Source: Candidatus Aminicenantes bacterium (lineage in GTDB: Bacteria; Acidobacteriota; Aminicenantia; Aminicenantales; UBA4085). Taken from it: 64,000 nucleotides of DNA. The position numbers were made by a program, and so were the translations under genes. The first letter of the stretch is position 1. Each line of letters starts with the position of its first letter. Positions 2,269-23,344 of this stretch are shown one piece after another. The notes under the pieces are model-generated. The model was not told the origin of the DNA and did no database searches. It saw only the letters and a program-made list of their open reading frames with translations. Where the stretch lies: positions 905 through 64,904 of the forward strand of contig JAUYDS010000079.1 in assembly GCA_030691735.1 (NCBI GenBank), read 5' to 3'.

Positions 2269-5200
2269 TTGGGATCTCGAGGACTATTACGCGTCGCGGT
2301 GGCGCAAGCCTTGAAAGCGCTTTTCCGCTTGTTCGGCAGCCGCGCTCCGCATCCGGCTGAGAAGCCCCTGCGCGACGAACTGCTGAGCATCGAAAGACTG
2401 GAAGAGAGGGCGAGAGCGCTCGCGGCCGGGTTCACGCTCGACCCGAATCCCCGCCGCGCGGCGCGGAACGTCCTGCCGCGCTTCGAGGACAACGCCCGCG
2501 TCCTTCGCGAGGCATACATCACCATGGCCGACGATGTGCACCGGGGGGAGTTCGTCACCCCCGCGGCGGAATGGCTCCTCGACAACTTCCATCTCGTGGC
2601 GTCCGAGGTCCTCGCCGTGCGCCGGAACCTCCCGCCGGGCTACTATCGCGGGTTGCCCAAACTCGCTTTGCGGGAGCTCGCGGGCCACGCGCGCGTCTAT
2701 GCCCTGGCCGAAGAGATCATCCGCCACAGCGACAGCCGCTTGGACCGCCAGCAGCTGGTGCGCTTCATGAACAGCTTCCAGGCCGTGGCTCCGCTCACGA
2801 TCGGCGAGCTGTGGGCCTGGCCGAGCATGCTGAAGCTGGCCCTCATCGAGAACCTGAGGCGGCTCGCGGAGGAGACGCTCGAGGCCCGCGCGGCCGTCCT
2901 GGCGGCCGACGCCTACGTGGCGCGGGTCGACGACGCCGGGCAGGGGAAGCCGCCGCCGCTGCCAAAGCACCTCCACACCGGTTACGTCCTTCAGCTCCTC
3001 CAACGCCTGCGCGAGCACGGCCCTCGCCTTTCCGCCGTCCGCGCCGCCGTCGATACGCACCTCTCCGCCCAACACATGGCCTCTGAGGACGCGATTCGGA
3101 GCGAGCATCAGCGCCAAGCCGCGGCCCAGGTCTCGGTGGCCAACGTCATCACCAGCCTCCGTCTCTGCTCCGCGCTCGACTGGAGCCAGTCCTTCGAGGC
3201 CGTCAGCCTGGTCGAGCGCGTGTTGCAGCGCGACCCGGCCGGGGCTTATGGGAGCATGGACTTCCTGAGCCGCGACCGCTACCGCCAGGCCGTGGAGGAG
3301 CTATCCGGGCCCACCGGAGAGGCGCAGTTGGACGTGGCTCTGCGAGCTATTGAGCGCGCTCGCCGGGCCGTGGAGAGCGGACAGGCGGCGGATCGCGCCG
3401 CCCACGTCGGCCACTACCTCATCGGCAAGGGCCGCCCCGACCTCGAGACCGACGTCGCCTTTCGACCCCGCTTCGGCCGGCGGGTGCGGCGTTTCGTCTT
3501 CGCCCATGCGACCGCCGTCTACCTCGGATCGATCGGGCTCCTGACGGCCCTCCTGCTCGGCCTCGGGCTCGCCTACCTCCATGATCAGCGCTCATCGCTC
3601 GGGGTTCGGGCCGCAGCGGCGCTGCTCCTGTTGCTTCCGGCCAGCCAGGTGGCGATCGCCTTCGTGCAGCGCCTGGTTGCTCGTTGGGCACCGCCGCAAC
3701 GCCTCCCCCGCCTCGAATTCCCTGCGGGAATCCCCGACAACGCGCGAACCATGGTGGTCGTGCCCACGCTGCTGACGAGCGTGCCCGCCGTGGCCCGCCT
3801 TATCGAGCACATCGAGGTGCTGGCTCTCGGAAACCTCGATCCGCGCATCCACTTCGCGATCCTCAGCGACTTCGTCGACGCCCCCGCGCGCGAGATGCCC
3901 GAGGACGAGCCGATCCTCTCCGCCGCCCGGGCGGGGATCGATGCCCTGAACGCGCACTTCGGTGAAGGGTATACGGACCGGTTCTTCCTGTTCCATCGCC
4001 TGCGCCAGTGGAACCCGGGAGAGAGCGTCTGGATGGGCTGGGAGCGCAAGCGTGGAAAACTCGAGGAATGGAACCGCCTTCTACGCGGGGCCACGGACAC
4101 GAGCTTCTCCGTGCAGGTCGGCGACGTGGGGATCCTCCCCGGCGTGCGCTACTGCCTCACTCTCGACTCCGACACCCGCCTGCCGCGGGACGCCGCGAAG
4201 AAGCTCGTCGGCATCATCGCCCATCCTTTGAACCGCCCCCGCTTCGACGTCCGCCTCGGCCGCGTCACCGAGGGCTATGGGATCCTGCAGCCCCGGGTCA
4301 GCGTGACCATGGCCAGCGCCGCCGGCTCACTCTTCGCCCGCCTCTACGCCGGCCACACCGGAGTCGATCCCTACACCACCGCTGTTTCGGACACCTATCA
4401 GGACCTGTTCGGCGAGGGGATCTTCACGGGCAAGGGGCTCTACGACGTGGACGCCTTCATGGCCGCCCTCGAGGGGCGCGTGCCCGAGAACGCCCTTCTC
4501 TCGCATGACCTCTTCGAAGGGGTCTACGCCCGCACGGCGCTCGTCACGGACGTGGAGGTGGTGGACGACTATCCCGCGAGCGTCCTCGCCCATGCGCGGC
4601 GCCAGCACCGCTGGGTTCGGGGCGATTGGCAGATCCTCCGCTGGCTGTTCCCTTGGGTTCCAACCCGCTCCGGCCTGAAGCGCAACCGGCTGCCCCTCAT
4701 CTCGCGCTGGAAGATCTTCGACAACCTGAGGCGCAGCCTCGTCCCCCCCTCGACCGTCGCCCTGCTCCTTCTGGCCTGGGCGATCCTGCCGGGAAGCCCG
4801 GCGGTCTGGACGGCCGCCATCCTGGCCGCCATGGCCTTTCCCCTTTATCCGCTGCTCCTGGAGGCCGCCAGAGGTCCCAGGCCGCAACAGCCGTGGCTGG
4901 TGTTCCTCCGCGCCGCTTGGAAAGATGGGAAGACCGTGCTCGCTCAGGTATCGCTGCAGCTCACCTTCCTGGCCAGCCAGGCTTACGAGAGGACCCACGC
5001 GATCGTGCTGACCCTCGTCCGTCTCGCGGCGACCCAGCGCCGCCTGCTGGAGTGGGAGACGGCCGCGGCCAGCGAAACCCGAGGGGCCGGCAAGGCAAGG
5101 CGAGCGAGCGCACGGGTGTTTCTGGTAGAGATGATCGCGAGCCCGCTGGTCGCATCAAGCGGCCTCCTCCTGGTCTTGCTGGCGCGCCCGGGCGCGCTCC

Positions 5201-8200
5201 TCACGGCCATCCCGGTCCTGGCTTTGTGGGCGGCCGCGCCGCTCGTCGCATATGCGCTGAGCCGGCCCGTGGTACCGCGACGTGTCGAGCTGGGGGAAGA
5301 GGACCGCTGGTTCCTCCGTCTCATTGCCCGCAACACCTGGCGATACTTCGAGGCGTTCATGGGCCCCGAAGACCACGGCTTGCCCGCGGACAATTTCCAG
5401 GAGACGCCGGAACCCCGGATCTCCCACCGGACGTCGCCCACGAACATCGGCATGGGGCTGCTCGCCACCCTGGCCGCTCACGATCTCGGCTTCATCCGGA
5501 CGGACGAGCTTGCCTCCAGGATCGACGCCACGCTGACCACGATGGAAGGCCTCGAACACTTCGACGGTCACCTGCTCAACTGGTACGACACGCAGAGCCT
5601 GGCGCCGCTCCTGCCGGCTTACGTGTCCACCGTCGACAGCGGCAACCTCGCGGGCGCGCTCATGACCCTGGCGGAAGGGCTGCGCCAGGCGAGCCGGCAA
5701 CCGCCGCCCACGGCCGAGCCGGCAGTCAAGGGACGAGCCTTCGCGGCGGCAGTCAAGGGACGAGCCTTCGCGGCGGAAGTGGACCCCCGGGCAAAGCCCG
5801 GGGCACTCACCCGCGATGTATATACGCGGCTGAGTACGGCGGAAGCGGATCCCCAGACAAAGCCTGCCCTCATTCGCTTCGCGAATGAGGACTGCAAAGC
5901 CCGGGGCCCGGCCGCCGCCCCGGCCGCCGTCGATCTCTCCCAACGCCTCCTTGACCTGGCGGGCCGCGCCGCCCGGTTCGCGGACGGGATGAGCTTCCGG
6001 TTCCTCTACGACCCGCAGCGCCGGATCCTCTCCATCGGCTATCGTCTCGCCGACGCCGAGGGGCCGGGCCGGCTGGATGCTTCCTACTATGACCTCCTGG
6101 CCTCGGAATCGCGGCTGACGAGTTTCATCGGCATCGCCAAGGGCGACCTCCCCGAAACGCACTGGTTCCACCTGGGACGGCTCATCACCGCCGTGGACGG
6201 GACGCCCACCCTCCTGTCTTGGGGCGCCACCCTGTTCGAGTACTTGATGCCGCTCCTCTTCATGAAGAGCTTTCCGGAAACACTCCTCAACCAGACATGC
6301 CGGATGGCCGTGCGGCGGCAGATCGAGTACGCGACGGATCGCGCCGTGCCCTGGGGGATCTCGGAGTCCGCCTACAACCTCGTGGACCGGCACGACAACT
6401 ATCAGTACAAGGCCTTCGGCATCCCCGGCCTCGGCCTGAAGCGCGGCCTGGGCGACGAGCTGGTGGTCGCACCCTACGCCACCGCGCTCGCCGCCGGGCT
6501 CGAACCAACGAAGGCCGCCCGCAATCTGCGGCGCCTGGCCGGGGAAGGTCTCGAAGGCGCCTACGGCTACTACGAGGCCATCGATTACACGCATGGGAAG
6601 ACCGACGAGCCCGAAAGCGCCGGGAGAAGAGCGGGCCTCCCCCGGGGAACGGTGGTGCGTGCCTTCATGGCCCATCACCAGGGGATGACTCTCGTGTCCC
6701 TTGCCAACGTTCTCCTCGGCGATCCGATGGTGAAACGCTTTCATGCCGACCCGCGCGTGCAGGCCACGGAGCTGCTGTTGCAGGAGCAGGTACCGCGCCT
6801 GGTGCCCATCACCCAGCCGCGACCGGTCGAAGAGACCCGCGTGGCCGGCCCGCTGCCCGCGCTGGCCATTCGCCGCTTCTGGTCGCCGCATACGCTGTTC
6901 CCTCATGCGCAGTTCCTGTCCAACGGCAACTACACCGCCGTCGTGACGAATGCGGGAGGGGGCGCCAGCTTCTGTCGAGGCCGCGCGGTCACAAGGCACC
7001 GGGAGGATCCGACCCGCGACCCGGGGAGCCAGTTCCTCTATCTGCGCGACGTGCGGAGCGGCTCGGTGTGGTCAGCAACTTTCCACCCCACCGCCAAGGA
7101 GCCGGAGGAGTACCTGGTCTCGTTCCTCGCGGAGAAGGCGACCTTTCGCCGCCGGGACGACGACATCGCCGTCCAGCTCGACATCGCCGTCTCGAACCAG
7201 GACGACGTTGAAGTGCGGCGCCTGGCGGTGACCAACCACAGCGATCGTCCCCGCGAGATCGAGATCACGAGCTTTGCCGAGATCGTCCTCGCCCCGCCGG
7301 CCGACGACCTGGCCCACCCGGCCTTCGGCAAGCTGTTCGTCGAGACGGAATACCTTCCCGAGAGCGCCGCCCTCCTCTGCCATCGCCGAGCGCGCGCCCC
7401 GGACGAGCCCGGGGCGTGGGCGATTCACGTCCTGAGCCTCGAAGGACGGAAGCAGGGGCCGGTGGAATGGGAGACCGACCGGGCGCGCTTCCTGGGTCGC
7501 GGCCGCGGTCCCGAGAACCCCCAGGCCCTCGACGGACGCTCCCTGTCCGGCACGACCGGGTTCGTACTCGACCCCGTCGTCAGCCTCCGGCAGCGCATTC
7601 GCCTCGCGCCGGGCGGCTTCATTAAGCTGTCTTTCGCCACGGGTATGGCGTCCTCCCGGGAGACGGCCCTGGCTCTCGCCCGGCGCTACCACGAGCCGAG
7701 CGCCGCGGCGCGAACCTTCGCCCTCGCCTTCGCCCATACGCAGAGCGGCCTCCGCCACCTTGGCATCTCGAGCGAACAAGCCTTGCTCTTCGAACGCCTG
7801 GCCTCGCGGGTGCTGTATACCGACGGATCGCTCCGCGCGAGCCCGGAGCTTCTGGCCCGCAACACCCTCGGCCAGGAAGGCCTCTGGCCGCACGGCATCT
7901 CGGGCGATCTCCCCATCCTCCTGGTGCGGGTCGTCGAGGAGGACGACCTGCCGCTGGTGCGCCAGGTCCTGCAGGCGCAGGAGTACTGGCGGCTCAAGGG
8001 GTTGAACGCCGACGTCGTGATCCTCAACGAGCACCCCGTGAGCTATCTCGACGAGATGCACGCGCTGCTCGTGGCCCTCCTCGACAATGGACCCTGGAGG
8101 ACCTGGAAGCACCGGCCCGGCGGGGCTTACCTGCTCCGTGGGGACCGCATGGCTGAAGCCGAGCGCATCCTCCTCGCGGGCGTGGCGCGCGCCGTCCTGA

Positions 8201-10791
8201 GCGGCGAGCGGGGAGATCTGGCCAACCAACTCGACTGGCTCGATCCCGAGTGGCCGGAGCCGGAGGAATTCGCGCCCTCCGCGGAGTCGAGCTCAGCCGC
8301 CGCGTCGCCGGCGCAGGTGGCCGTGCCTCCGCTCGCCCTGGCCAACGGCATGGGCGGCTTCGCCGACGACGGGCGCGACTACGTGGTCGTCCTTGAAGCG
8401 GCCCAGGAGACGCCCCTGCCTTGGGCCAACGTCATCGCCAACCCCGCGTTCGGGACCGTGATCACGGCCTCAGGGTCGGCCTACACCTGGTCGGAGAACA
8501 GCCGCGAGAACCGCCTCACGCCTTTCGCGAACGACCCCGTGACCGACCCCACGGCCGAGGCGCTCTTCATCCGCGACGATGAGACCGGAGAGACCTGGTC
8601 CCCCACGCCGGGCCCGATGCCCCGCACGGGCGGGGACGGTCGCTTCGTGATTCGGCATTCCGCCGGGCTGACTCGTTTCGCTCGCGTAGCGCACGGCCTG
8701 CGCCAAGACCTCGACGTATTCGTAGACGCGAAGGACCCGGTGAAATTCTCACTGCTCACGCTTACGAACGAAAGCGGAAGGGCGCGTCGCCTGAGCGTGT
8801 TCGCCTACAACGAGTGGGTGCTGGGGCCGCCGCGGGCGGGCCAGAGCACGCACGTGGTGACCGAGCTCGACTCCGCGACCGGAGCGGTCCTGGCCAGGAA
8901 TCCCTACAACCAAGAGTTCGCGGGGCGCGTGGCTTTCGCCCACGCGAGCGAAGGGCTGCGCTCGGCAACGGGAGATCGCTTGTCGTTCCTGGGTCGCAAC
9001 GGTTCCCTGGCGCAACCGGCGGCGCTCCGCCGTGAAGCCCTGTCGGGCCGCTTCGGAGCGGGGCTCGATCCCTGCGCCGCGCTGCACGTCTCCGTCACTC
9101 TGATCCCGGGGGAGACGCGCCTCCTTGTGTTCCTGGTTGGGCAGGGGAAGGATGGGAATGAGGCCCGCGAGCTTCTGGGCCGGCATGGTCGCGTGGACGC
9201 CGCGGAAATCGCCCGGGAGGCCGTGCGCCGGAGCTGGGACGGCATCCTCGACACGGTCCAGGTCCGTACGCCGGACGACTCCTTCGATCTGTTGATGAAC
9301 CGCTGGCTGCTCTATCAGGACGTGAGCTGCCGGCTGTGGGCCCGGTCCGCTTACCACCAGCCGAGCGGCGCCTTCGGGTTCCGCGACCAGCTTCAGGACG
9401 TCATGGCTTTGACGCTGGCCCGGCCGGATCTCATCAGAGAACACCTGTTGCGAGCAGCCGGCCGGCAATTCCTCGAAGGCGACGTCCAGCACTGGTGGCA
9501 CGAGCGGAGCGGCCGGGGCACCCGCACGCGCTGTTCCGACGACCTGTTATGGCTTCCCCACGCGGTAGCGCACTACGTCCGGACGACGGGAGACGCGGGC
9601 GTCCTCGATGAGCCGGCGCCCTTCCTGGAGGCCCCGCCGCTCGCCCCGGAAACGCAGGACGCCTACGTTCAGCCCCGCATCTCGACCGAAAAGAGTCCGA
9701 TCTTCGAGCATTGCCTGCGCGCCATCGACCGTGGACTGACCGCGGGCGCCCACGGCCTTCCCCTTATGGGGAGCGGGGACTGGAACGACGGCATGAACCG
9801 CGTGGGACGGGAAGGGCGCGGGGAGAGCGCCTGGGTGGGCTTCTTCCTCCACGTGGTCCTGAGCGAGTTCGCGCCGCTCTGCGAAGCTCGGGGGGACCAG
9901 GCCCGGGCCGAGCGCTACCGCGGCGAGGCCCGCCGGCTCGGCAGCATGCTGGAGCAGACCTGGGACGGCGAGTGGTACCGGCGCGGCTACTACGACGACG
10001 GCAAGCCTCTAGGCTCGGCCCAGAACGACGAGTGCCGGATCGACGCCACCGTACAGTCCTGGGCGGCGCTCTCGGGCGCGGTTCCCGTGCGCTACGCGGA
10101 ACGCGCCATGGACGCTGTCCGCACCCACCTGGTTCGGCGCGGACCTCAGGTCGTACTGCTGCTCACCCCGCCCTTCGACGAATCCATCCAGGATCCGGGG
10201 TACATCAAGGGCTATCCGCCCGGCGTGCGTGAGAACGGCGGCCAATACACCCACGGGGCTCTCTGGGTCGTCATGGCCATGGCCCGGCTGGGCAGCGGCG
10301 ACGAGGCGGTGGAGCTCTTCCACATGCTCAATCCCGTCAACCATACCAGGACCGCGGCCGGTGTCGGGCGCTACATGGCCGAGCCCTACGTCATCGCCGG
10401 AGACGTCCACGCCGACCCGGCACACGCCGGGCGTGGCGGCTGGACGTGGTACACCGGCTCCGCGGGCTTGATGTACCGCGCGGGCCTCGAGAGCATCCTC
10501 GGGCTCCGGCGCCGGGGCTCGACCTTCGAGATGGACCCCTGCATCCCGTCATCCTGGCTTGACTACGCGATCGTCTGGCGCTTCGGCCGGACGCGCTACG
10601 AGATCGCGGTCTCGAACCCGGAGCGCCGCTGCCGAGGGATCGCGGAGGCGGAACTGGATGGCGCGCCGGTCGACCCCCGCTCCATCCCTCTCGCCGATGA
10701 CGGCGGCACGCACCAAGTCCGGCTGGTGCTGGGAGACCCAAAGCGGCCCGTCCCGCCCGTTGCCGACCCGGGTGCCATCGCTTCTGCTTGA
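2269..10791 (+). CDS. ndvB: Cyclic beta-1,2-glucan synthase (Cgs/NdvB/ChvB family; GT84 domain plus C-terminal GH94 phosphorylase-like domain); the start is a TTG
   Basis: The 2840-aa product has TM clusters around aa 400-470 and 830-1000. A GT-A signature DSDT (nt about 4165) and [10 protein letters not shown] flank the glycosyltransferase domain. The C-terminal region is GH94-like ([27 protein letters not shown]). The size and architecture match Brucella/Rhizobium Cgs. Confidence 0.8.
5723..5930 (+). repeat. Composite, nested copy of the GC-rich palindromic mini-element, inserted in-frame in cgs (copy A)
   Basis: It contains a 27-bp tandem duplication of CAGTCAAGGGACGAGCCTTCGCGGCGG, the core hairpin GACCCCCGGGCAAAGCCCGGGG, a second hairpin module and a repeated GCCCGGGGCCCGGCCGCC tail. 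It is translated as [28 protein letters not shown]. Confidence 0.8.
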
Positions 10792-13730: not shown

Positions 13731-16115
<2,385 letters not shown>

Positions 16116-16128
16116 GTTCTCCTCCGCT

Positions 16129-16581
16129 TCACTCCTCGTTTTTCTGGATCTTGACGATGATGTCCCGTTCCCTGGCCGGCTTCGGTTTTTTCAGATGGAC
16201 GGTCAAAATGCCGTTCTCGAGATAGGCCGTAGCCCCGTCCATATCCACGGCGCACGGGAGCGGCACGGTCCTCTGGAATTTCCCGTACTCGCGCTCCAGG
16301 CGCAGATATCGGGTCCCCGCCTTGACGGGGGTCTCGATCTTCATTCCCCGGATCTCGATCCGGCTCAGCCGGAGGGAGATGACGATCTCCCGCGCCGAAA
16401 GCCCCGGGACCTCGACCTCGACGACGATATCGTCGTCTTTCTCGTAAACGTCGACGAGCGGGAGCCATCCGCCCTGGAGCTCGGGGAATTCGGGCCGCTC
16501 GGTCATCGCCTCGTTCATCAGGCGCCGGATGACGCTCTCGAACTTGGCCACACGGGTCACGGGATGAATGCGTTTGACCAT
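16129..16581 (-). CDS. Hsp20/alpha-crystallin family small heat-shock protein
   Basis: The 150-aa product has an alpha-crystallin domain (VDVYEKDDDIVVEVEVPG...ENGILTVHLKK). It lies immediately upstream of lon on the same strand. Confidence 0.85.
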   Translation of the reverse strand: MVKRIHPVTRVAKFESVIRRLMNEAMTERPEFPELQGGWLPLVDVYEKDDDIVVEVEVPGLSAREIVISLRLSRIEIRGMKIETPVKAGTRYLRLEREYGKFQRTVPLPCAVDMDGATAYLENGILTVHLKKPKPARERDIIVKIQKNEE

Positions 16582-16666
16582 GTCCTTAATCCGAGATCAC
16601 TCCTTCTTCGATCTTTCGCAACTCAACCTTATTTAATCCCAAGAAGCGTTTTTGTCAAATCCGGAA

Positions 16667-16767
16667 GTCAAGGGACGAGCCTTCGGCTCGCCACTCGCCC
16701 GTGGCTTTTAACCACGGGCGAGTACGGCGGAAAGGACCCCCGGGCAAGCCCGGGGCCCCGGCCGCCG
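16667..16767 (+). repeat. GC-rich palindromic mini-element, long form with the extra hairpin module (copy B), intergenic
   Basis: The sequence is GTCAAGGGACGAGCCTTCG + GCTCGCCACTCGCCCGTGGCTTTTAACCACGGGCGAGTA + CGGCGGAAAGGACCCCCGGGCAAGCCCGGGGCCCCGGCCGCCG. Confidence 0.8.
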
Positions 16768-16789
16768 AGAAGGGATCCGGTCCCCCGCC

Positions 16790-17245
16790 CTATTTTTCTT
16801 TGAGGAGGTTCTCCAGTTCCTGTTTGAACTCGTGGACGTCCCGGAACTCCCGATAGACCGAGGCGAATCGGACGTAGGCGACCTTATCCAGGGCCTTGAG
16901 CCTGTCCATCACGAGCTGACCGATCTCCGCCGCCTTCATCTCTTTCTCCGGACGCTCCTGGAGCTTGGCTTCGATCTCCTCGATGATCTCCTCGAGCTTG
17001 CTGACGGCGATGGGCCGCTTTTCGATGGCTTTGAGCATCCCCCGCAGGAGCTTCTGACGGTCGAAAAGCTGCCGCGAGCCGTCCTTCTTGACGATCATGT
17101 AGGGGATCTCTTCGATCTTTTCGTATGTCGTGAACCGCCTTTCGCAGGCGAGGCATTCCCGCCGCCTCCTGATGGAGAGCCCTTTCTTGCTCTCCCGGGA
17201 ATCGATGACTTTGCTCTCCAGATGACCGCAGAAAGGACACTTCAT
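16790..17245 (-). CDS. nrdR: Transcriptional repressor NrdR (151 aa; the longer tool ORF N-extension is spurious)
   Basis: The product has the N-terminal zinc ribbon [42 protein letters not shown] and an ATP-cone. The true start is the ATG at 17245. Confidence 0.9.
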
Positions 17246-18276
17246 GATTCGGCCGACTCCCCGAGCTTTTTCAATTGAAACAACGTCAATCCCTCTTTCC
17301 ATAATATAACAAAACCGACCAGACATGTCATCACCAGCTGGACGGCATGGACGGCGACGGTCAGGCTGAAGGCCTGGTTGGGATCGATCTTGAAGAGGGC
17401 GGTCAGGCCGAGCTGGCTGAAGGAATGGAACCCGCCGATCATGCCCGGCGTCGGGATGGAAGCCCCGATCATCGTCAGGAAGATATAGGGAATGAGGAGG
17501 AAAAAATAAGGCAGCGAAACCCGGTAAGCCTGAAAGAAGACCCAGTACCAGAACATGATGCCCAGCCAAACGACGAAGGACAGGCCGAGGTAGGTCAAGA
17601 GGTTGCCCAGGGAATGAAAGAACTTGAGCCCGTCGATGAACTCATGGAGAAGCTTCAGGATCCTCCGGCTCAACGTCTCGGAGAGAGGTTTCAGAAGGCG
17701 GGCCGTGATGGCCAGCGCCTTCTCCTTGAAGAAGTAAAAGAGGAGGCTGACGACGAGCAGGAGCGAGGCGAACCCCACCCCTACGATCCCCCACAGATAG
17801 AGCTTGGAGTAGGTCTCTGCCTGAAGGTGCAATTTCGACTCGTAGAGCGGCCGGGCCAGGAGGAAAACGCCGAGGAGAGAGCACATGGTAAACATGTCGA
17901 AGATCCGCTCGACAATCACCGTGCCCAGGGTGAACCCGGCCCGAACCCCTTCCTTACGGGCCACATAGAGAGGCTTGACGATCTCCCCCAGGCGCCCCGG
18001 GAGAAGATAAGTCACGGTGAAGCCGATCGCGTTGCCGGCGAACAGGTTGTAGAACTTGACGTCCTTTTTTTCGTGGATCAGGAGGTATTTCCAGCGGTAG
18101 GCGCGGGTCACAAGGTGGATGGGCACCAACAACAGGACCAGGACGAAGATCCCTAAGTTCGCGTGGGTCAGGAAGCGCCAGACGGCTCCCCAATCCTTGA
18201 CGCTTTTGACGAAGAAAAAGAGCAAGACGGCCGTCAAAAGAAGAACCAGCGTGACGCGGACCCACGTTTTCTTCAT
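17242..18276 (-). CDS. Flippase-like/UPF0104 (lysylphosphatidylglycerol synthase TM-region family) membrane protein
   Basis: The product has 8 or more TM helices. The motif [17 protein letters not shown] is characteristic of PF03706. Confidence 0.6.
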
Positions 18277-18361: not shown

Positions 18362-18432
18362 TGGGAAGTCGTCCAACGGCAGGACTCATGACTCTGGATC
18401 ATGAAATCAAGGTTCGAATCCTTGCTTCCCAG
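18362..18432 (+). tRNA. tRNA-Gln (anticodon CTG), CCA not encoded
   Basis: The acceptor stem TGGGAAG/CTTCCCA is a perfect 7 bp. The D-stem is GTCC/GGAC, the anticodon stem CATGA/TCATG with loop CTCTGGA (U33, anticodon CUG), and the T-arm CAAGG-TTCGAAT-CCTTG. The discriminator is G. Confidence 0.8.
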
Positions 18433-18661
18433 CTCCTCCCTGCCCTTTTCCCAGTCCGCCGCCGGACCGCCGAGGTCATGAGCTGACCGTCGAACAGTTT
18501 CGGGGACATGATTCCCTGTCCCGGGCGAAAGCCATAGGGACAGGGTATCGTGTCCCCCTTCGTCTTGGAAACTGATCGACGGTCAGGGTCAAGGCCGGTT
18601 GACGTCCGGCCCGAAATCATATATTGTGGGATGTCTTTGGTTTCTATGCTTTTGAGCGGAA

Positions 18662-19600
18662 ATGACACAAACAACGAAAGTTAGAGAGGGCGAGATCTGG
18701 GCCGTCGGCGGCGGCAAAGGCGGCACCGGAAAGACGTTCATCACCTCCAGCATCGGCACCTATCTGGCCAAGAAAGGCAAGAACGTCGTCCTCGTCGACA
18801 TGGACATCGGCGGGGCCAATCTCCATTCGTTCTTCGGCATCAGCCGCCCCCTGAAGTCCCTGACCAGCTTTTTCGAGATGGGGGCGTCTCTCTCCGACCT
18901 CGTGGTCAAGACCGACCTGGACAATATCTCCCTCATTTCGGGCGACGTCCATTCCATCTCCGCCGACAAGATCACTTTTTCCCAGAAGCTCAAGCTCTTC
19001 CGGCAGATCATGAAGCTCAATGCCCAGAACGTGATCATCGACCTGGGCGCCGGCAGCCACTACAACACCCTCGACACCTTCCTGATCGCCGACCGGATGG
19101 TGGTGGTTCTGGTCCCCGAGGTGATCGCCATCGAGAACATGTACCATTTCATCAAGAACTCCCTGTTCCGAAAGGTCAAGAAGATCCTCAAGGAATACGG
19201 CTTCAAAGAGATCGTCCAGCACATTTGGGACCGCCGACAAAGCTACGGGATCAACAACATCAGGGAACTGATCGACTATCTCAAGGATAGCTTCTCCTAC
19301 ATCGGCACGATCCTGGACCACGAGCTGGCCGCTTTCAAGGTTCACCTGGTCCTGAACATGGTCCGGAACAACAACGATATCCTCCTCGGCGCCTCGATCA
19401 AGAGCGTCATGATGAAGTACCTGGGCGTCCCCATCCAATATTCCGGCTACGTCGAATACAACGACGCGGTCTGGAAATCGGTCCGCGAGCGCAAGCCCTT
19501 CATGATCAACTATCTGGCCACCGGCTGCGCCAAGGAGATCGAGGTCCTTGTCGAAAATGTGATCAAAGGCAAAGAGGTCAGCTTGCCGGGAGGCTATTGA
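18662..19600 (+). CDS. MinD/ParA-family P-loop ATPase
   Basis: The product has the deviant Walker A GGGKGGTGKT and MinD-like Switch regions. The 312-aa product overlaps the next gene by 4 bp. Confidence 0.75.
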   Translation: MTQTTKVREGEIWAVGGGKGGTGKTFITSSIGTYLAKKGKNVVLVDMDIGGANLHSFFGISRPLKSLTSFFEMGASLSDLVVKTDLDNISLISGDVHSISADKITFSQKLKLFRQIMKLNAQNVIIDLGAGSHYNTLDTFLIADRMVVVLVPEVIAIENMYHFIKNSLFRKVKKILKEYGFKEIVQHIWDRRQSYGINNIRELIDYLKDSFSYIGTILDHELAAFKVHLVLNMVRNNNDILLGASIKSVMMKYLGVPIQYSGYVEYNDAVWKSVRERKPFMINYLATGCAKEIEVLVENVIKGKEVSLPGGY

Positions 19601-20166
19601 TGCCCAAGGACGAACTCAAGAAATATTACGACATGCTCGAACTGCCGTCGGACGCGCCTCTCCGGGACATCCATAACTCCTTCCTGCGCCTGAAGAAGCT
19701 CTATTCGGGCGATTCCATCGTCCTGGCCCCCCTCGGTGAGGAATTCTCCGAGAAAAAGCGAAAACGCGTGCTCGAGCAGATCGAAGAGGCTTATCTCAAG
19801 CTGTTGGAGGCCAAAAAGGACGCGCCGTCCAGGACGGCCCTTCTCTTTTCCGACGGGCACGAGCCCGAGGACGGCGCCGAGAGGGATAAAATCGGCGACG
19901 CTCCGTTGACCGGCCCGTCGCTCCGCAAGCTTCGCGAAAAGGCCGGCGTCGATCTGAACGAGATCGCCAAGGAAATGAAGCTGCGGATGGAACTGTTGAA
20001 GAGCGTCGAGGACGAGAAATACGAAGCCCTGCCCGAGGCGATCTACCTCAAGGTCCACCTCAAGAATTACGCCTCGTTCCTCGGCTTGGACCCGGTCCGG
20101 GTCACCGAGGAATATCTCCGGCGCTATCAGGCCTGGAAAGAAAAGACCGTCCCCACCGAGAAATAA
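19597..20166 (+). CDS. Small cytoplasmic protein with an N-terminal J-like domain (no HPD) and a C-terminal HTH_25 (RodZ-type) helix-turn-helix
   Basis: The N-terminus YYDMLELPSDAPLRDIHNSFLRLKKLY resembles J-domain helices II-III. The C-terminus LRKLREKAGVDLNEIAKEMKLRMELLKSVEDEKYEALPEAIYLKVHLKNYASFLGLD matches the RodZ N-terminal HTH. Confidence 0.5.
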   Translation: MMPKDELKKYYDMLELPSDAPLRDIHNSFLRLKKLYSGDSIVLAPLGEEFSEKKRKRVLEQIEEAYLKLLEAKKDAPSRTALLFSDGHEPEDGAERDKIGDAPLTGPSLRKLREKAGVDLNEIAKEMKLRMELLKSVEDEKYEALPEAIYLKVHLKNYASFLGLDPVRVTEEYLRRYQAWKEKTVPTEK

Positions 20167-20245
20167 TTTCTCCGGATAACTCCCTTTCTAATCAACCCAA
20201 CCCCCGACTTACGACCAGGGATTTGCAGCGACACTATAAAAGTCG

Positions 20246-20320
20246 GACGTGGCTAATCCCCCCTTCTCCCCCCTTTAGTAAAGGGGGGGAAGCGAGCCCC
20301 CCTTTTCTAAAGGGGGGATT
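20246..20320. terminator. GC-rich tandem-hairpin repeat element (copy 1) acting as a bidirectional terminator between convergent genes
   Basis: GACGTGGCTAATCCCCCCTTCTCCCCCCTTTAGTAAAGGGGGGGAAGCGAGCCCCCCTTTTCTAAAGGGGGGATT shares its first 33 nt with the copy at 23289. It abuts the stop of the purF-like gene. Confidence 0.65.
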
Positions 20321-21725
20321 AATCCGGCTCGACGCCGTCCCAGCAATAGGTGCAAAGCCGCTCTTTAGGCAGGCCGATGGCCGCCACGAGATCCTCGAGG
20401 TGCTGGTACTTGAGGGTCGTCAGGTTCAATCTCTGCCGGATCCTTTCTTCCATGGCCTTGTACTTGTCCGTGTCTTCTCTGGTGTAATCCGTCAGGTCGG
20501 CCGGGTATTCGCCTTCGATCTCGCGGATGGCCCGCCGGGCGGCCAGGTCCATCTCCGACCGGGAGACCGAAAAATTCAGGAACTTGCAGCCGAAGACGAG
20601 CGGCGGGCAGGCCGGCCGCATATGGACCTCCAGGGCTCCGCAATCGTAGAGCCGCTGGATCGTGTCCTGGAGCTGGGTTCCCCGGACGATGGAATCCTCG
20701 CAGAAGAGGAACTTCTTGCCCTTGATCAGGTCGCCGATGGGGATGAGCTTCATCCGGGCGACGAGGTCCCGGACGCCCTGGCTCTGGGGCATGAAGCTGC
20801 GGGCCCACGTGGGCGTATATTTGACGAACGGCCGCTTGAACGGGACGCCGGATTCGGCCGCGTAGCCTAGGCCGTGACCGACACCCGAGTCCGGGATCCC
20901 GGCCACGAAATCGATCGGGACCGGGTTGTGCTTGGCCAGGAACGCGCCGCAGCGGTTCCGCGCGTCCTCGACGTTGATGCCTTCGTAGCTCGAGGCCGGG
21001 TAGCCGTAGTAGACCCAGAGGAAGGCGCAGATCTGAAGCTTGTCGCCCGGCGCCTGTTTCTGCTCGCACCCCTCGGGGGAAATGAAGAGGATCTCTCCGG
21101 GTCCCAGATATTTTTCGACCTCGAAGCCGAGGTTGGGGAAGGCGCACGTCTCCGACGTCACGGCGAAATTGCCCGCTTTCTTACCGAGGACGATCGGTGT
21201 CCGGCCCCATTTATCGCGGCCGGCGTACAGGCCCTTTTCGGTCAGGATGAGGACGGAGCAGGAGCCCTCGATGGAATCTTGGAGGTTCCGGATCCCCGCT
21301 TCGAAGCTTTCCTCCTGGTCGATGAGCGTCGCGGCCAGCTCGGTCGGATTGATCCCGCCGGCGCCGATCTCGGTGAAGTGCAGACCTCTCTTCCGGAAAA
21401 GGTCCTCGGACAGCGCCGCGGCGTTCTTGATGGCGCCGACGGTGACGATGGCGTAATCCCCGAGATGGGAACGGATGAGAAGGGGTTGGTCGTCGAAATC
21501 GCTGATCACCCCGATGCCGGCCCAGGAATGCATCCGGTCGAGGTCCGGATCGAACTTGGAGCGGAACTGGGCGTTCTCGATGTTGTGGATGACGCGGACA
21601 AAACCGTCCTTTTGGCGGACGGCCAGCCCGCCCCGCTTCGTCCCGAGATGGGAATGGTAGTCCGTGCCGTAGAACAGGTCGGCGATACAATCGTCCCAGG
21701 AAGCGATCCCGAAAAATCCTCCCAT
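20319..21725 (-). CDS. Amidophosphoribosyltransferase (PurF) homologue lacking the N-terminal catalytic Cys (the N-terminus is MGGFFGIAS); [4Fe-4S]-type C-terminus
   Basis: The product is collinear with PurF. The PRPP loop FLFCEDSIVRGTQL matches (cf. LLVDDSIVRGTT), and the C-terminus carries CTYCW. An ATG start with a GAGGGGGA RBS is present. Cys1 is replaced by Gly. Confidence 0.75.
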   Translation of the reverse strand: MGGFFGIASWDDCIADLFYGTDYHSHLGTKRGGLAVRQKDGFVRVIHNIENAQFRSKFDPDLDRMHSWAGIGVISDFDDQPLLIRSHLGDYAIVTVGAIKNAAALSEDLFRKRGLHFTEIGAGGINPTELAATLIDQEESFEAGIRNLQDSIEGSCSVLILTEKGLYAGRDKWGRTPIVLGKKAGNFAVTSETCAFPNLGFEVEKYLGPGEILFISPEGCEQKQAPGDKLQICAFLWVYYGYPASSYEGINVEDARNRCGAFLAKHNPVPIDFVAGIPDSGVGHGLGYAAESGVPFKRPFVKYTPTWARSFMPQSQGVRDLVARMKLIPIGDLIKGKKFLFCEDSIVRGTQLQDTIQRLYDCGALEVHMRPACPPLVFGCKFLNFSVSRSEMDLAARRAIREIEGEYPADLTDYTREDTDKYKAMEERIRQRLNLTTLKYQHLEDLVAAIGLPKERLCTYCWDGVEPD

Positions 21726-23288: not shown

Positions 23289-23344
23289 GACGTGGCTAAT
23301 CCCCCCTTCTCCCCCCTTTATTAAAGGGGGGAGAAGGGGGGATT
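23289..23344. terminator. 47-bp perfect palindrome AATCCCCCCTTCTCCCCCCTTTA-T-TAAAGGGGGGAGAAGGGGGGATT preceded by the shared GACGTGGCT flank (copy 2)
   Basis: It lies downstream of the stop of the minus-strand M16 peptidase gene (23440). The stem is about 23 bp and perfect. Confidence 0.7.

Follow-up and report, generated by a model that had tools for sequence, protein, structure and literature searches.

The two genes described here, carried by a bacterium of the uncultured Aminicenantes group, lie on a 64,000-nucleotide stretch of contig JAUYDS010000079.1 ("the window"; the names of homologues likewise place it in Candidatus Aminicenantes). They form an operon that probably, although by no means certainly, encodes an ATPase of an uncharacterized subfamily within the ParA/MinD (A/D) superfamily together with a dedicated partner or adaptor protein, with binding of the former to a matrix and of the latter to a cargo being inferred. 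The partner joins a J-domain-like N-terminal domain, through a disordered linker, to a C-terminal helix-turn-helix (HTH) domain of the RodZ type (HTH_25).

The functional link between the two proteins is strong, since their genes were paired in 31 of 31 loci and are joined in one natural fusion. The loci comprised the window and 30 others drawn from Aminicenantes, Desulfobacteraceae and Thermodesulfobacteriota (26 reached via the partner, three via the ATPase alone and one, L147, with an identical ATPase). The ATPase gene stood directly 5′ of the partner gene, in the same order, throughout, including all three loci picked through the ATPase alone, and the tight coupling put forward for the window in an initial annotation of this DNA is borne out across genomes. 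The fusion protein (P0417; 507 amino acids [aa], found on five metagenomic contigs) aligns over residues 1 to 313 with the full-length ATPase and over residues 317 to 506 with the whole partner, the J-like domain following the ATPase C-terminus almost without a spacer; it is a Rosetta-stone fusion that arose through loss of a stop codon. The Walker A motif of P0417 reads GSGKGGVGRS, in which Arg replaces the P-loop Lys; this recalls the NCBIfam "KGGVGR-motif variant" ATPases and raises the question of ATP hydrolysis in the fused form. Compared with the window ATPase along the entire sequence, the insertion described below included, ATPases adjoining the most distant partners showed identities of 49% (L001) and 37% (L003); hence the two genes have codiverged. 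When 1.84 billion representatives were searched with a profile, 737 partner-family proteins (50% identity representatives), P0417 among them, were returned at E ≤ 1e-30, and at 90% identity the family comprised at least 1,170 clusters. NCBI names put its members in Aminicenantes, Desulfobacteraceae/Deltaproteobacteria, Thermodesulfobacteriota and Nitrospirota; a scan of genome contigs returned only Aminicenantes-type loci, but it used one narrow peptide pattern and has little bearing on taxonomic breadth.

The ATPase matched the Pfam families CbiA, AAA_31 and ParA. The deviant Walker A motif GGGKGGTGKT, on which the initial annotation had based its assignment, was found at residues 16 to 25 and was invariant in an alignment of 22 sequences, as were K19, K24, D46, D48 and D127. 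On sequence grounds the protein carries all catalytic hallmarks of an A/D ATPase that forms ATP-sandwich dimers, and its dimerization is predicted to be ATP dependent. NCBIfam models for MinD scored 66 to 70 bits against cut-offs of 202 to 213 (TIGR01968: 66.2 bits versus 212.9), NF008079 scored 48.5 bits against 508, and models for BcsQ, RepA, ParA and tyrosine kinases scored below the MinD models (BcsQ, TIGR03371: 37.5 bits versus 157.85). The closest solved relatives were FleN (5j1j), archaeal and bacterial MinD, and FlhG (phmmer E ∼1e-13). An AlphaFold model (predicted local distance difference test score [pLDDT] of 82; predicted template modeling score [pTM] of 0.83) had a SIMIBI/MinD-type fold and matched FleN, FlhG, MinD and Soj with a Foldseek probability of 1.00, ranking FleN/FlhG first, MinD next and Soj/ParA after them, all at no more than ∼20% identity. 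The ATPase therefore belongs to the A/D superfamily with FleN/FlhG and MinD as its nearest relatives, but with identities of ∼20% and scores far below the family cut-offs it is an orthologue of none of them. Orthology to FlhG/FlhF, MinDE, ParAB or BcsQ was rejected on scores, motifs and gene context (no bcs genes lie nearby); the initial annotation had left room for FlhG/FlhF, MinDE or BcsQ, and neither profile nor structure searches bore any of these out.

The alignment to FleN breaks at a gap in which residues 165 to 218 of the ATPase face only residues 170 to 174 of FleN. In the model this gap is filled by four to five helices (residues 154–177, 182–190, 192–195, 200–210 and 212–222; pLDDT ∼90), so the protein carries an insertion of ∼50 residues with a basic start (KNSLFRKVKK). 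The helix preceding it aligns with the partner-binding helix region of MinD and FleN, and the insertion is kept both in the ATPases adjoining distant partners and in the fusion protein. Before strand 1 there are only 10 low-confidence residues (MTQTTKVREG), which therefore leave no room for the N-terminal activator helix of FlhG (motif DQAxxLR). At the other end no amphipathic extreme C-terminus was found, the last 11-residue windows having hydrophobic moments of 0.07 to 0.15 in a comparison with reference values for membrane-targeting sequences, and the tail GKEVSLPGGY was modeled at low pLDDT. The ATPase is basic (isoelectric point [pI] ∼9), with a mean pI of 9.1 in 117 homologues.

Pfam matches of the partner were limited to HTH_25, HTH_19 and a weak match to DnaJ. 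Homology of its N-terminal domain to J domains is nonetheless secure, because PF00226 (DnaJ), although below threshold on the window copy (E = 0.054), matched 23 of 27 diverse family members (best E = 2.1e-10). The AlphaFold model (pLDDT of 78) places three N-terminal helices (residues 3–12, 21–35 and 51–73) that superpose on J domains, with Foldseek matches to DNAJB6, Tid1 and Thermus thermophilus DnaJ at a probability of ≥0.9. The His-Pro-Asp (HPD) motif occurred in none of 202 family members and its central residue was never Pro: the window partner has SGDS at this position, S/A/G-x-[DE]-S is found in members from Aminicenantes, and H-x-D-S in a clade rich in Thermodesulfobacteriota. Helix II, which is basic (Lys32 and Lys33), and the [DE]-S loop are conserved, and a few Lys and Arg residues occur in the N-terminal part. 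A linker of ∼30 residues follows (pLDDT <50 at residues 76 to 97; net charge of −5), in which mean pairwise identity is 15% compared to 44 and 46% in the two domains, and whose length across the family ranges from ∼25 to >200 residues (>200, and acidic or proline rich, in P0349, P0366 and P0374). The partner thus has an adaptor-like anatomy of two equally conserved domains on a variable linker.

The second domain matched HTH_25 at residues 108 to 167 (E = 3.6e-18), and its PDB sequence matches were 3fym, 2wus chain R and 4gqm. Its five helices superpose on the RodZ HTH (3fym and 2wus chain R) with template modeling (TM) scores of 0.76 to 0.79 and a root mean square deviation (rmsd) of ∼2 Å; the domain has an XRE-type HTH fold, and SinR, ClgR and DdrO follow RodZ among its Foldseek matches. 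In helix 4, Tyr149 is invariant and His153 is replaced by Tyr or Phe in other clades; in register with a Streptococcus pneumoniae RodZ model, they fall at positions 51 and 55, to which the MreB-contact aromatics of RodZ helix 4 correspond (PMC9804626). Residues 129 to 132, which lie exposed on what would be the recognition helix, vary freely between clades, whereas helix 4 is invariant. No membrane anchor was found, the longest hydrophobic run in 202 members never exceeding 11 residues; DUF4115 was not matched, the protein ends 5 residues past the HTH_25 domain, and NCBIfam models for RodZ scored 16 to 41 bits against cut-offs of 208 to 375. The initial annotation had described a J-domain-like N-terminus without HPD, an HTH_25 domain and no membrane anchor, and the family-wide comparison upholds that description.

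In A/D systems, ATP-sandwich dimers bind a nucleoid or membrane matrix, and a partner binds the dimer, stimulates its release and provides cargo specificity (PMC10241942). By the reading favored here, the ATP-bound ATPase dimer would bind a polyanionic matrix; given the basic character of the protein and its lack of an amphipathic C-terminal helix, the nucleoid is a likelier candidate for this matrix than the membrane. The partner would dock on the dimer via its N-terminal J-like domain and in doing so regulate ATP turnover. The J-like domain is the candidate for the ATPase-facing part because it directly follows the ATPase C-terminus in the fusion and because its basic helix II and [DE]-S loop are invariant. 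HTH_25, on its tether of variable length, would face the cargo and bind the thing to be positioned or regulated. RodZ HTH binds MreB through helix-4 aromatics and has other partners in S. pneumoniae (PMC9804626), and by this analogy the target would most likely be the surface of a protein, for instance an MreB-type actin, and less likely DNA. We favor a protein cargo with low confidence, since characterized HTH_25 domains (RodZ) bind proteins, the helix-4 positions are conserved and the recognition-helix residues vary. The resemblance to positioning systems drawn by the initial annotation holds for the combination of a ParA/MinD-type ATPase with a noncanonical partner, while its further claim, stimulation of the ATPase "on a scaffold", was pure inference.

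Several points weigh against this reading. The putative interaction of the two proteins is argued from genetic linkage (the 31 loci and the one fusion), and matrix binding by the ATPase would follow from a single property, its pI. Known A/D partners work through an N-terminal peptide that is disordered and positively charged (PMC10241942), yet only 2 to 3 residues precede helix I of the folded domain in the partner. No cargo gene was conserved nearby among the loci examined. Conservation of the helix-4 residues is a hallmark of HTH_25 domains in general and does not point to MreB in particular.

It is also possible, although unlikely, that the pair controls transcription in the manner of FleN-FleQ or of an autoregulated type I par system, the HTH_25 protein being a DNA-binding regulator modulated by the ATPase in an ATP-dependent way. 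The XRE-type fold of the partner, with its matches to SinR, ClgR and DdrO after RodZ, would suit such a role, as would the name "helix-turn-helix transcriptional regulator" that NCBI gives to its homologues and the prominence of FleN, including FleN-FleQ complexes, among the best structural matches of the ATPase. However, characterized HTH_25 domains bind proteins and not operators (PMC9804626), the exposed recognition-helix positions vary between clades as helix 4 does not, and the target of FleN, an AAA+ enhancer-binding protein, is absent here. When 21 upstream regions were compared by k-mers, promoter hexamers were all that they shared 5′ of the operon, and no inverted or direct repeat was conserved.

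Decidedly improbable is a chromosomal type Ib-like system for DNA partition or positioning, with the partner as an HTH centromere binder (an analogue of ParB or ParG) and the ATPase as a nucleoid-bound ParA. No centromere-like arrays lie beside the operon, and the palindromes that are the sole repeats there are insertions that the closest relative, locus L007, lacks. Neither protein had a homologue on any of 72,556 plasmids, by which a plasmid partition system is rejected, and the pair, which shows vertical conservation in Aminicenantes, is found in ordinary surroundings on the chromosome. The ATPase is moreover nearer to FleN/FlhG and MinD than to Soj/ParA. What fits is the layout, one operon with a small gene for an ATPase and after it another for an HTH protein, together with the basic ATPase and the few N-terminal Lys and Arg residues of the partner.

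A chaperone-linked role, in which DnaK/Hsp70 would be brought by the J-like domain to the ATPase or to whatever client HTH_25 binds, is very improbable despite the homology to J domains, the conserved basic helix II (Lys32 and Lys33) and the retention of the His and Asp of HPD, as H-x-D, in the Thermodesulfobacteriota clade. HPD is needed by J-domain proteins to stimulate Hsp70, and here it is absent from all 202 members, with a central residue that is never Pro and with Ser, Ala or Gly in place of His in Aminicenantes; linkage to dnaK or grpE was seen in none of the loci examined. A divergent but true FlhG or MinD, controlling flagellar number or the division site, is suggested by product names in IMG and by FleN, FlhG and MinD being the top structural and sequence neighbors, but it fails every test applied (MinD equivalog scores, ∼20% identity to the solved proteins, the 10-residue N-terminus, the lack of an amphipathic C-terminal helix, and no flhF, fli, minC or minE in the window or in the related loci inspected) and is close to refuted. 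The IMG product name "flagellar biosynthesis protein FlhG" is given to the ATPase and also to many 180- to 200-aa copies of the HTH_25 partner, which makes the label unreliable; other partner copies are labeled "curved DNA-binding protein CbpA" in IMG/JGI, and this naming is a systematic misannotation of the family. A defense system was rejected, as PADLOC gave no significant match (P-loop or HTH fragments only, at E = 6e-4 or weaker).

Set beside characterized systems, the ATPase is most similar to the flagellar-number ATPases FleN and FlhG (5j1j, 4rz2/4rz3 and 8p53; phmmer E ∼1e-13, Foldseek E ∼1e-14, target-normalized TM score of 0.75 to 0.81), with which it shares the deviant Walker A motif with its signature lysine and a predicted ATP-dependent dimer. 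It differs from them in the ∼50-residue insertion after residue 165, in lacking both the activator helix and an amphipathic C-terminus, and in its setting, which is not flagellar and which supplies a J-like/HTH_25 partner in place of FlhF, FliM/FliY or FleQ. MinD belongs to the same ATPase clade, and a small partner gene lies directly downstream here as in minD-minE, its product presumably acting at the dimer interface; however, TIGR01968 and TIGR01969 score one third of their cut-offs, and the system has neither a membrane-targeting sequence nor a MinC nor a partner related to MinE. ParA-ParB and McdA-McdB (PMC10241942) are likewise two-gene systems of an ATPase and an adaptor with ATPase-facing and cargo-facing parts, and the basic ATPase described here would be compatible with nucleoid binding; in contrast to them, the adaptor has neither a ParB/Srx domain nor a disordered cationic N-terminal peptide, no parS-like repeats occur, and MinD/FlhG rather than ParA are the nearer relatives of the ATPase. 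The MreB-binding protein RodZ (2wus chain R, 3fym and 4gqm) shares with the partner the HTH_25 fold (rmsd ∼2 Å) and the helix-4 aromatic positions, but its HTH is N-terminal and followed by a single transmembrane helix and a periplasmic DUF4115, whereas the partner is soluble, with the HTH at its C-terminus and a J-like domain attached. J-like proteins without HPD that act with positioning machinery include ARC6/Ftn2/ZipN. Vibrio SflA is another such protein (PMC7226244). In all of these the J fold works outside the classical Hsp70 cycle and genetically close to spatial regulators of the MinD/FlhG type, as may be the case here, but ARC6/Ftn2/ZipN and SflA are membrane proteins with other domains, are neither adjacent to nor fused with the ATPase, and have no HTH_25.

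Coordinates of the operon and of the features around it are collected in Table 1. The partner open reading frame (ORF) has two candidate starts, TTG at 19597 and ATG at 19600. The start is almost certainly the ATG, because M1 is invariant (homologues all start at the equivalent Met), GGAGG lies 7 nucleotides (nt) 5′ of it, an independent gene call on L147 takes it as the start, and junctions in most loci are TGATG, TAATG or ATGA (overlaps of 1 to 4 nt) or a 2-nt gap. The 4-bp overlap and 189-aa partner of the initial annotation are accordingly revised to an overlap of 1 nt (TGATG) with the ATPase stop and a protein of 188 aa.

Table 1. Position of the ATPase-partner operon, its parts and adjoining elements in the window
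Feature	Position	Strand	Basis
MinD/FlhG-clade deviant-Walker-A ATPase, 312 aa, subfamily uncharacterized	18662..19600	+	ORF, Pfam, NCBIfam, PDB matches, AlphaFold
Deviant Walker A GGGKGGTGKT (residues 16-25; signature Lys19, P-loop Lys24)	18707..18736	+	Sequence, alignment
Predicted subfamily-specific helical insertion of ATPase (∼residues 166-217)	19157..19312	+	FleN alignment break, AlphaFold model
Shine-Dalgarno GGAGG of partner gene, within ATPase gene end	19588..19592	+	Sequence
Partner/adaptor protein, 188 aa: J-like domain, disordered linker, HTH_25; no membrane segment	19600..20166	+	
J-domain-like domain, residues 1-73	19600..19818	+	PF00226 matches across family, Foldseek
Acidic disordered linker, residues 74-103	19819..19908	+	pLDDT, identity, charge
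RodZ-type HTH_25 domain, residues 104-183	19909..20148	+	Pfam, PDB sequence matches, Foldseek
Predicted sigma-70-type promoter of the two-gene operon	18599..18627	+	Consensus scan, comparison across loci
tRNA-Gln(CTG)	18362-18433		
Dispersed palindromic repeat insertion, not in module	18482..18588	.	Absence from L007
Lineage-specific insertion with two CCCCCCTTTNNTAAAGGGGGG palindromes, not in module	20179..20317 (approximate boundaries)	.	

A consensus scan placed a −35 hexamer (TTGACG) at 18599–18604 and a −10 element (TATATT/TATTGT) at 18620–18627, in agreement with the promoter-like sequence reported by the initial annotation. The pattern GTTGACG-N15-17-TATATTGT recurs ∼35 to 40 nt 5′ of the ATPase start in ∼16 Aminicenantes loci irrespective of the upstream gene, and it is kept in L007; the operon thus has its own conserved predicted promoter. 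A 56-nt stem-loop and the neighboring tRNA-Gln had been noted with the pair as well. The tRNA is present, but as a neighbor it is confined to close relatives, and its adjacency is not supported as part of the system. The hairpin (18502–18557; RNA fold z-score of −6.5) sits inside a second inverted repeat (18483–18501/18568–18586), making a structure of ∼107 nt in total, and L007 (95 and 90% identical at the protein level) lacks 18482–18588 with clean boundaries. Scanning metagenomes for the inner arm returned at least 120 contigs, and 119 of those listed align to the 18482–18588 element, with alignment coverage that climbs at ∼18482 and drops at ∼18588; 13 contigs hold two to three copies. The inner arms are 68 nt apart in many copies, compared to 35 here. 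The element is a dispersed palindrome similar to repetitive extragenic palindromic sequences or miniature inverted-repeat transposable elements (REP/MITE-like), and looks to be an uncharacterized one of Aminicenantes-type genomes. As a member of a dispersed repeat family that is cleanly absent from L007, the stem-loop lies outside the module. An upstream structured RNA or riboswitch was rejected on the same absence and on an Rfam scan of the whole window, which found only the tRNA. Downstream, CCCCCCTTTNNTAAAGGGGGG palindromes occur at 20268–20288 and 20297–20317, in the interval 20254–20321 between the convergent partner and amidotransferase-like genes, and a third copy lies ∼3 kb away at 23311–23331 (six strand-matches versus 0.01 expected by chance); the ∼140-nt segment holding the first two copies is absent from L007.

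The flanks of the pair differ between clades while the two genes stay adjacent, so they constitute an autonomous two-gene module; no third gene was conserved across clades among the loci examined. The window has nrdR, a gene for an LPG-synthase-type membrane protein and tRNA-Gln upstream and the convergent amidotransferase-like gene downstream, with lon, hsp20 and a CDF transporter gene among the wider neighbors. Elsewhere in Aminicenantes, nusA-infB or an H+-pyrophosphatase gene precedes the ATPase gene, and in a Desulfobacteraceae locus a toxin-antitoxin pair does. Four Thermodesulfobacteriota-type loci (L003, L004, L024 and L025) share a same-strand radical-SAM gene (331 to 336 aa) directly upstream of the ATPase and ahpC/thioredoxin genes downstream, beyond which all but L004, whose contig is short, carry dprA-topA; this synteny is confined to the clade, and only there does a radical-SAM gene precede the ATPase. 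In one Aminicenantes subclade (L005, L006, L012, L015 to L017, L019, L021, L026 and L149), a small convergent PilZ gene (87 to 117 aa) follows the partner gene within ∼0.05 to 1.5 kb; the window subclade lacks it, and the link may reflect synteny only or hint at an involvement of cyclic di-GMP (compare FleN-FleQ). The lon-hsp20-nrdR-LPG-synthase-type block upstream of the pair spans 13731–17248 on the minus strand, and nrdR and LPG_synthase_TM recur in L150. PDB entry 9a6n models a Soj-NrdR complex, although the occurrence of nrdR near a ParA/MinD-type ATPase is probably coincidental. Farther away, the window contains a 2,840-aa ORF (2269–10791, plus strand) with GH94 supersandwich and catalytic domains and glucoamylase-like and DUF3131 regions, an architecture that resembles cyclic β-1,2-glucan synthase or phosphorylase.

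The ATPase superfamily and the logic of an operon of ATPase plus adaptor are already known; what is new is the adaptor architecture, the insertion in the ATPase and the breadth of an unannotated family. The initial annotation had regarded the partner architecture as not previously described, and no description of it, or of a MinD-like ATPase paired with a J-like/HTH_25 protein, was found in the searchable open-access literature. In practical terms, the analysis corrects the "FlhG" label that IMG attaches to both proteins. ParA/MinD ATPases are the main spatial organizers of bacterial cells, with cargo specificity residing in diverse partners, and many A/D ATPases are still "orphans" (PMC10241942). 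The module, which occurs widely among little-studied anaerobic phyla, gives one ATPase subfamily an invariably linked partner of new architecture. Should this partner turn out to be an adaptor, a new type would join the known set, a J-domain fold would regulate a P-loop ATPase other than Hsp70, and a RodZ-type HTH might connect to an A/D ATPase. A more speculative and quite unlikely extension is that a J-domain fold has been co-opted for a non-Hsp70 ATPase while the tethered RodZ-type HTH couples a MinD-like cycle to an MreB-type actin or another cytoskeletal protein, yielding a soluble "MinD-RodZ" hybrid that would pattern wall elongation or polarity in Aminicenantes, Thermodesulfobacteriota and Nitrospirota. 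If this is true, the A/D ATPases would gain a partner of a new class and would be tied in a new way to the bacterial actin cytoskeleton.

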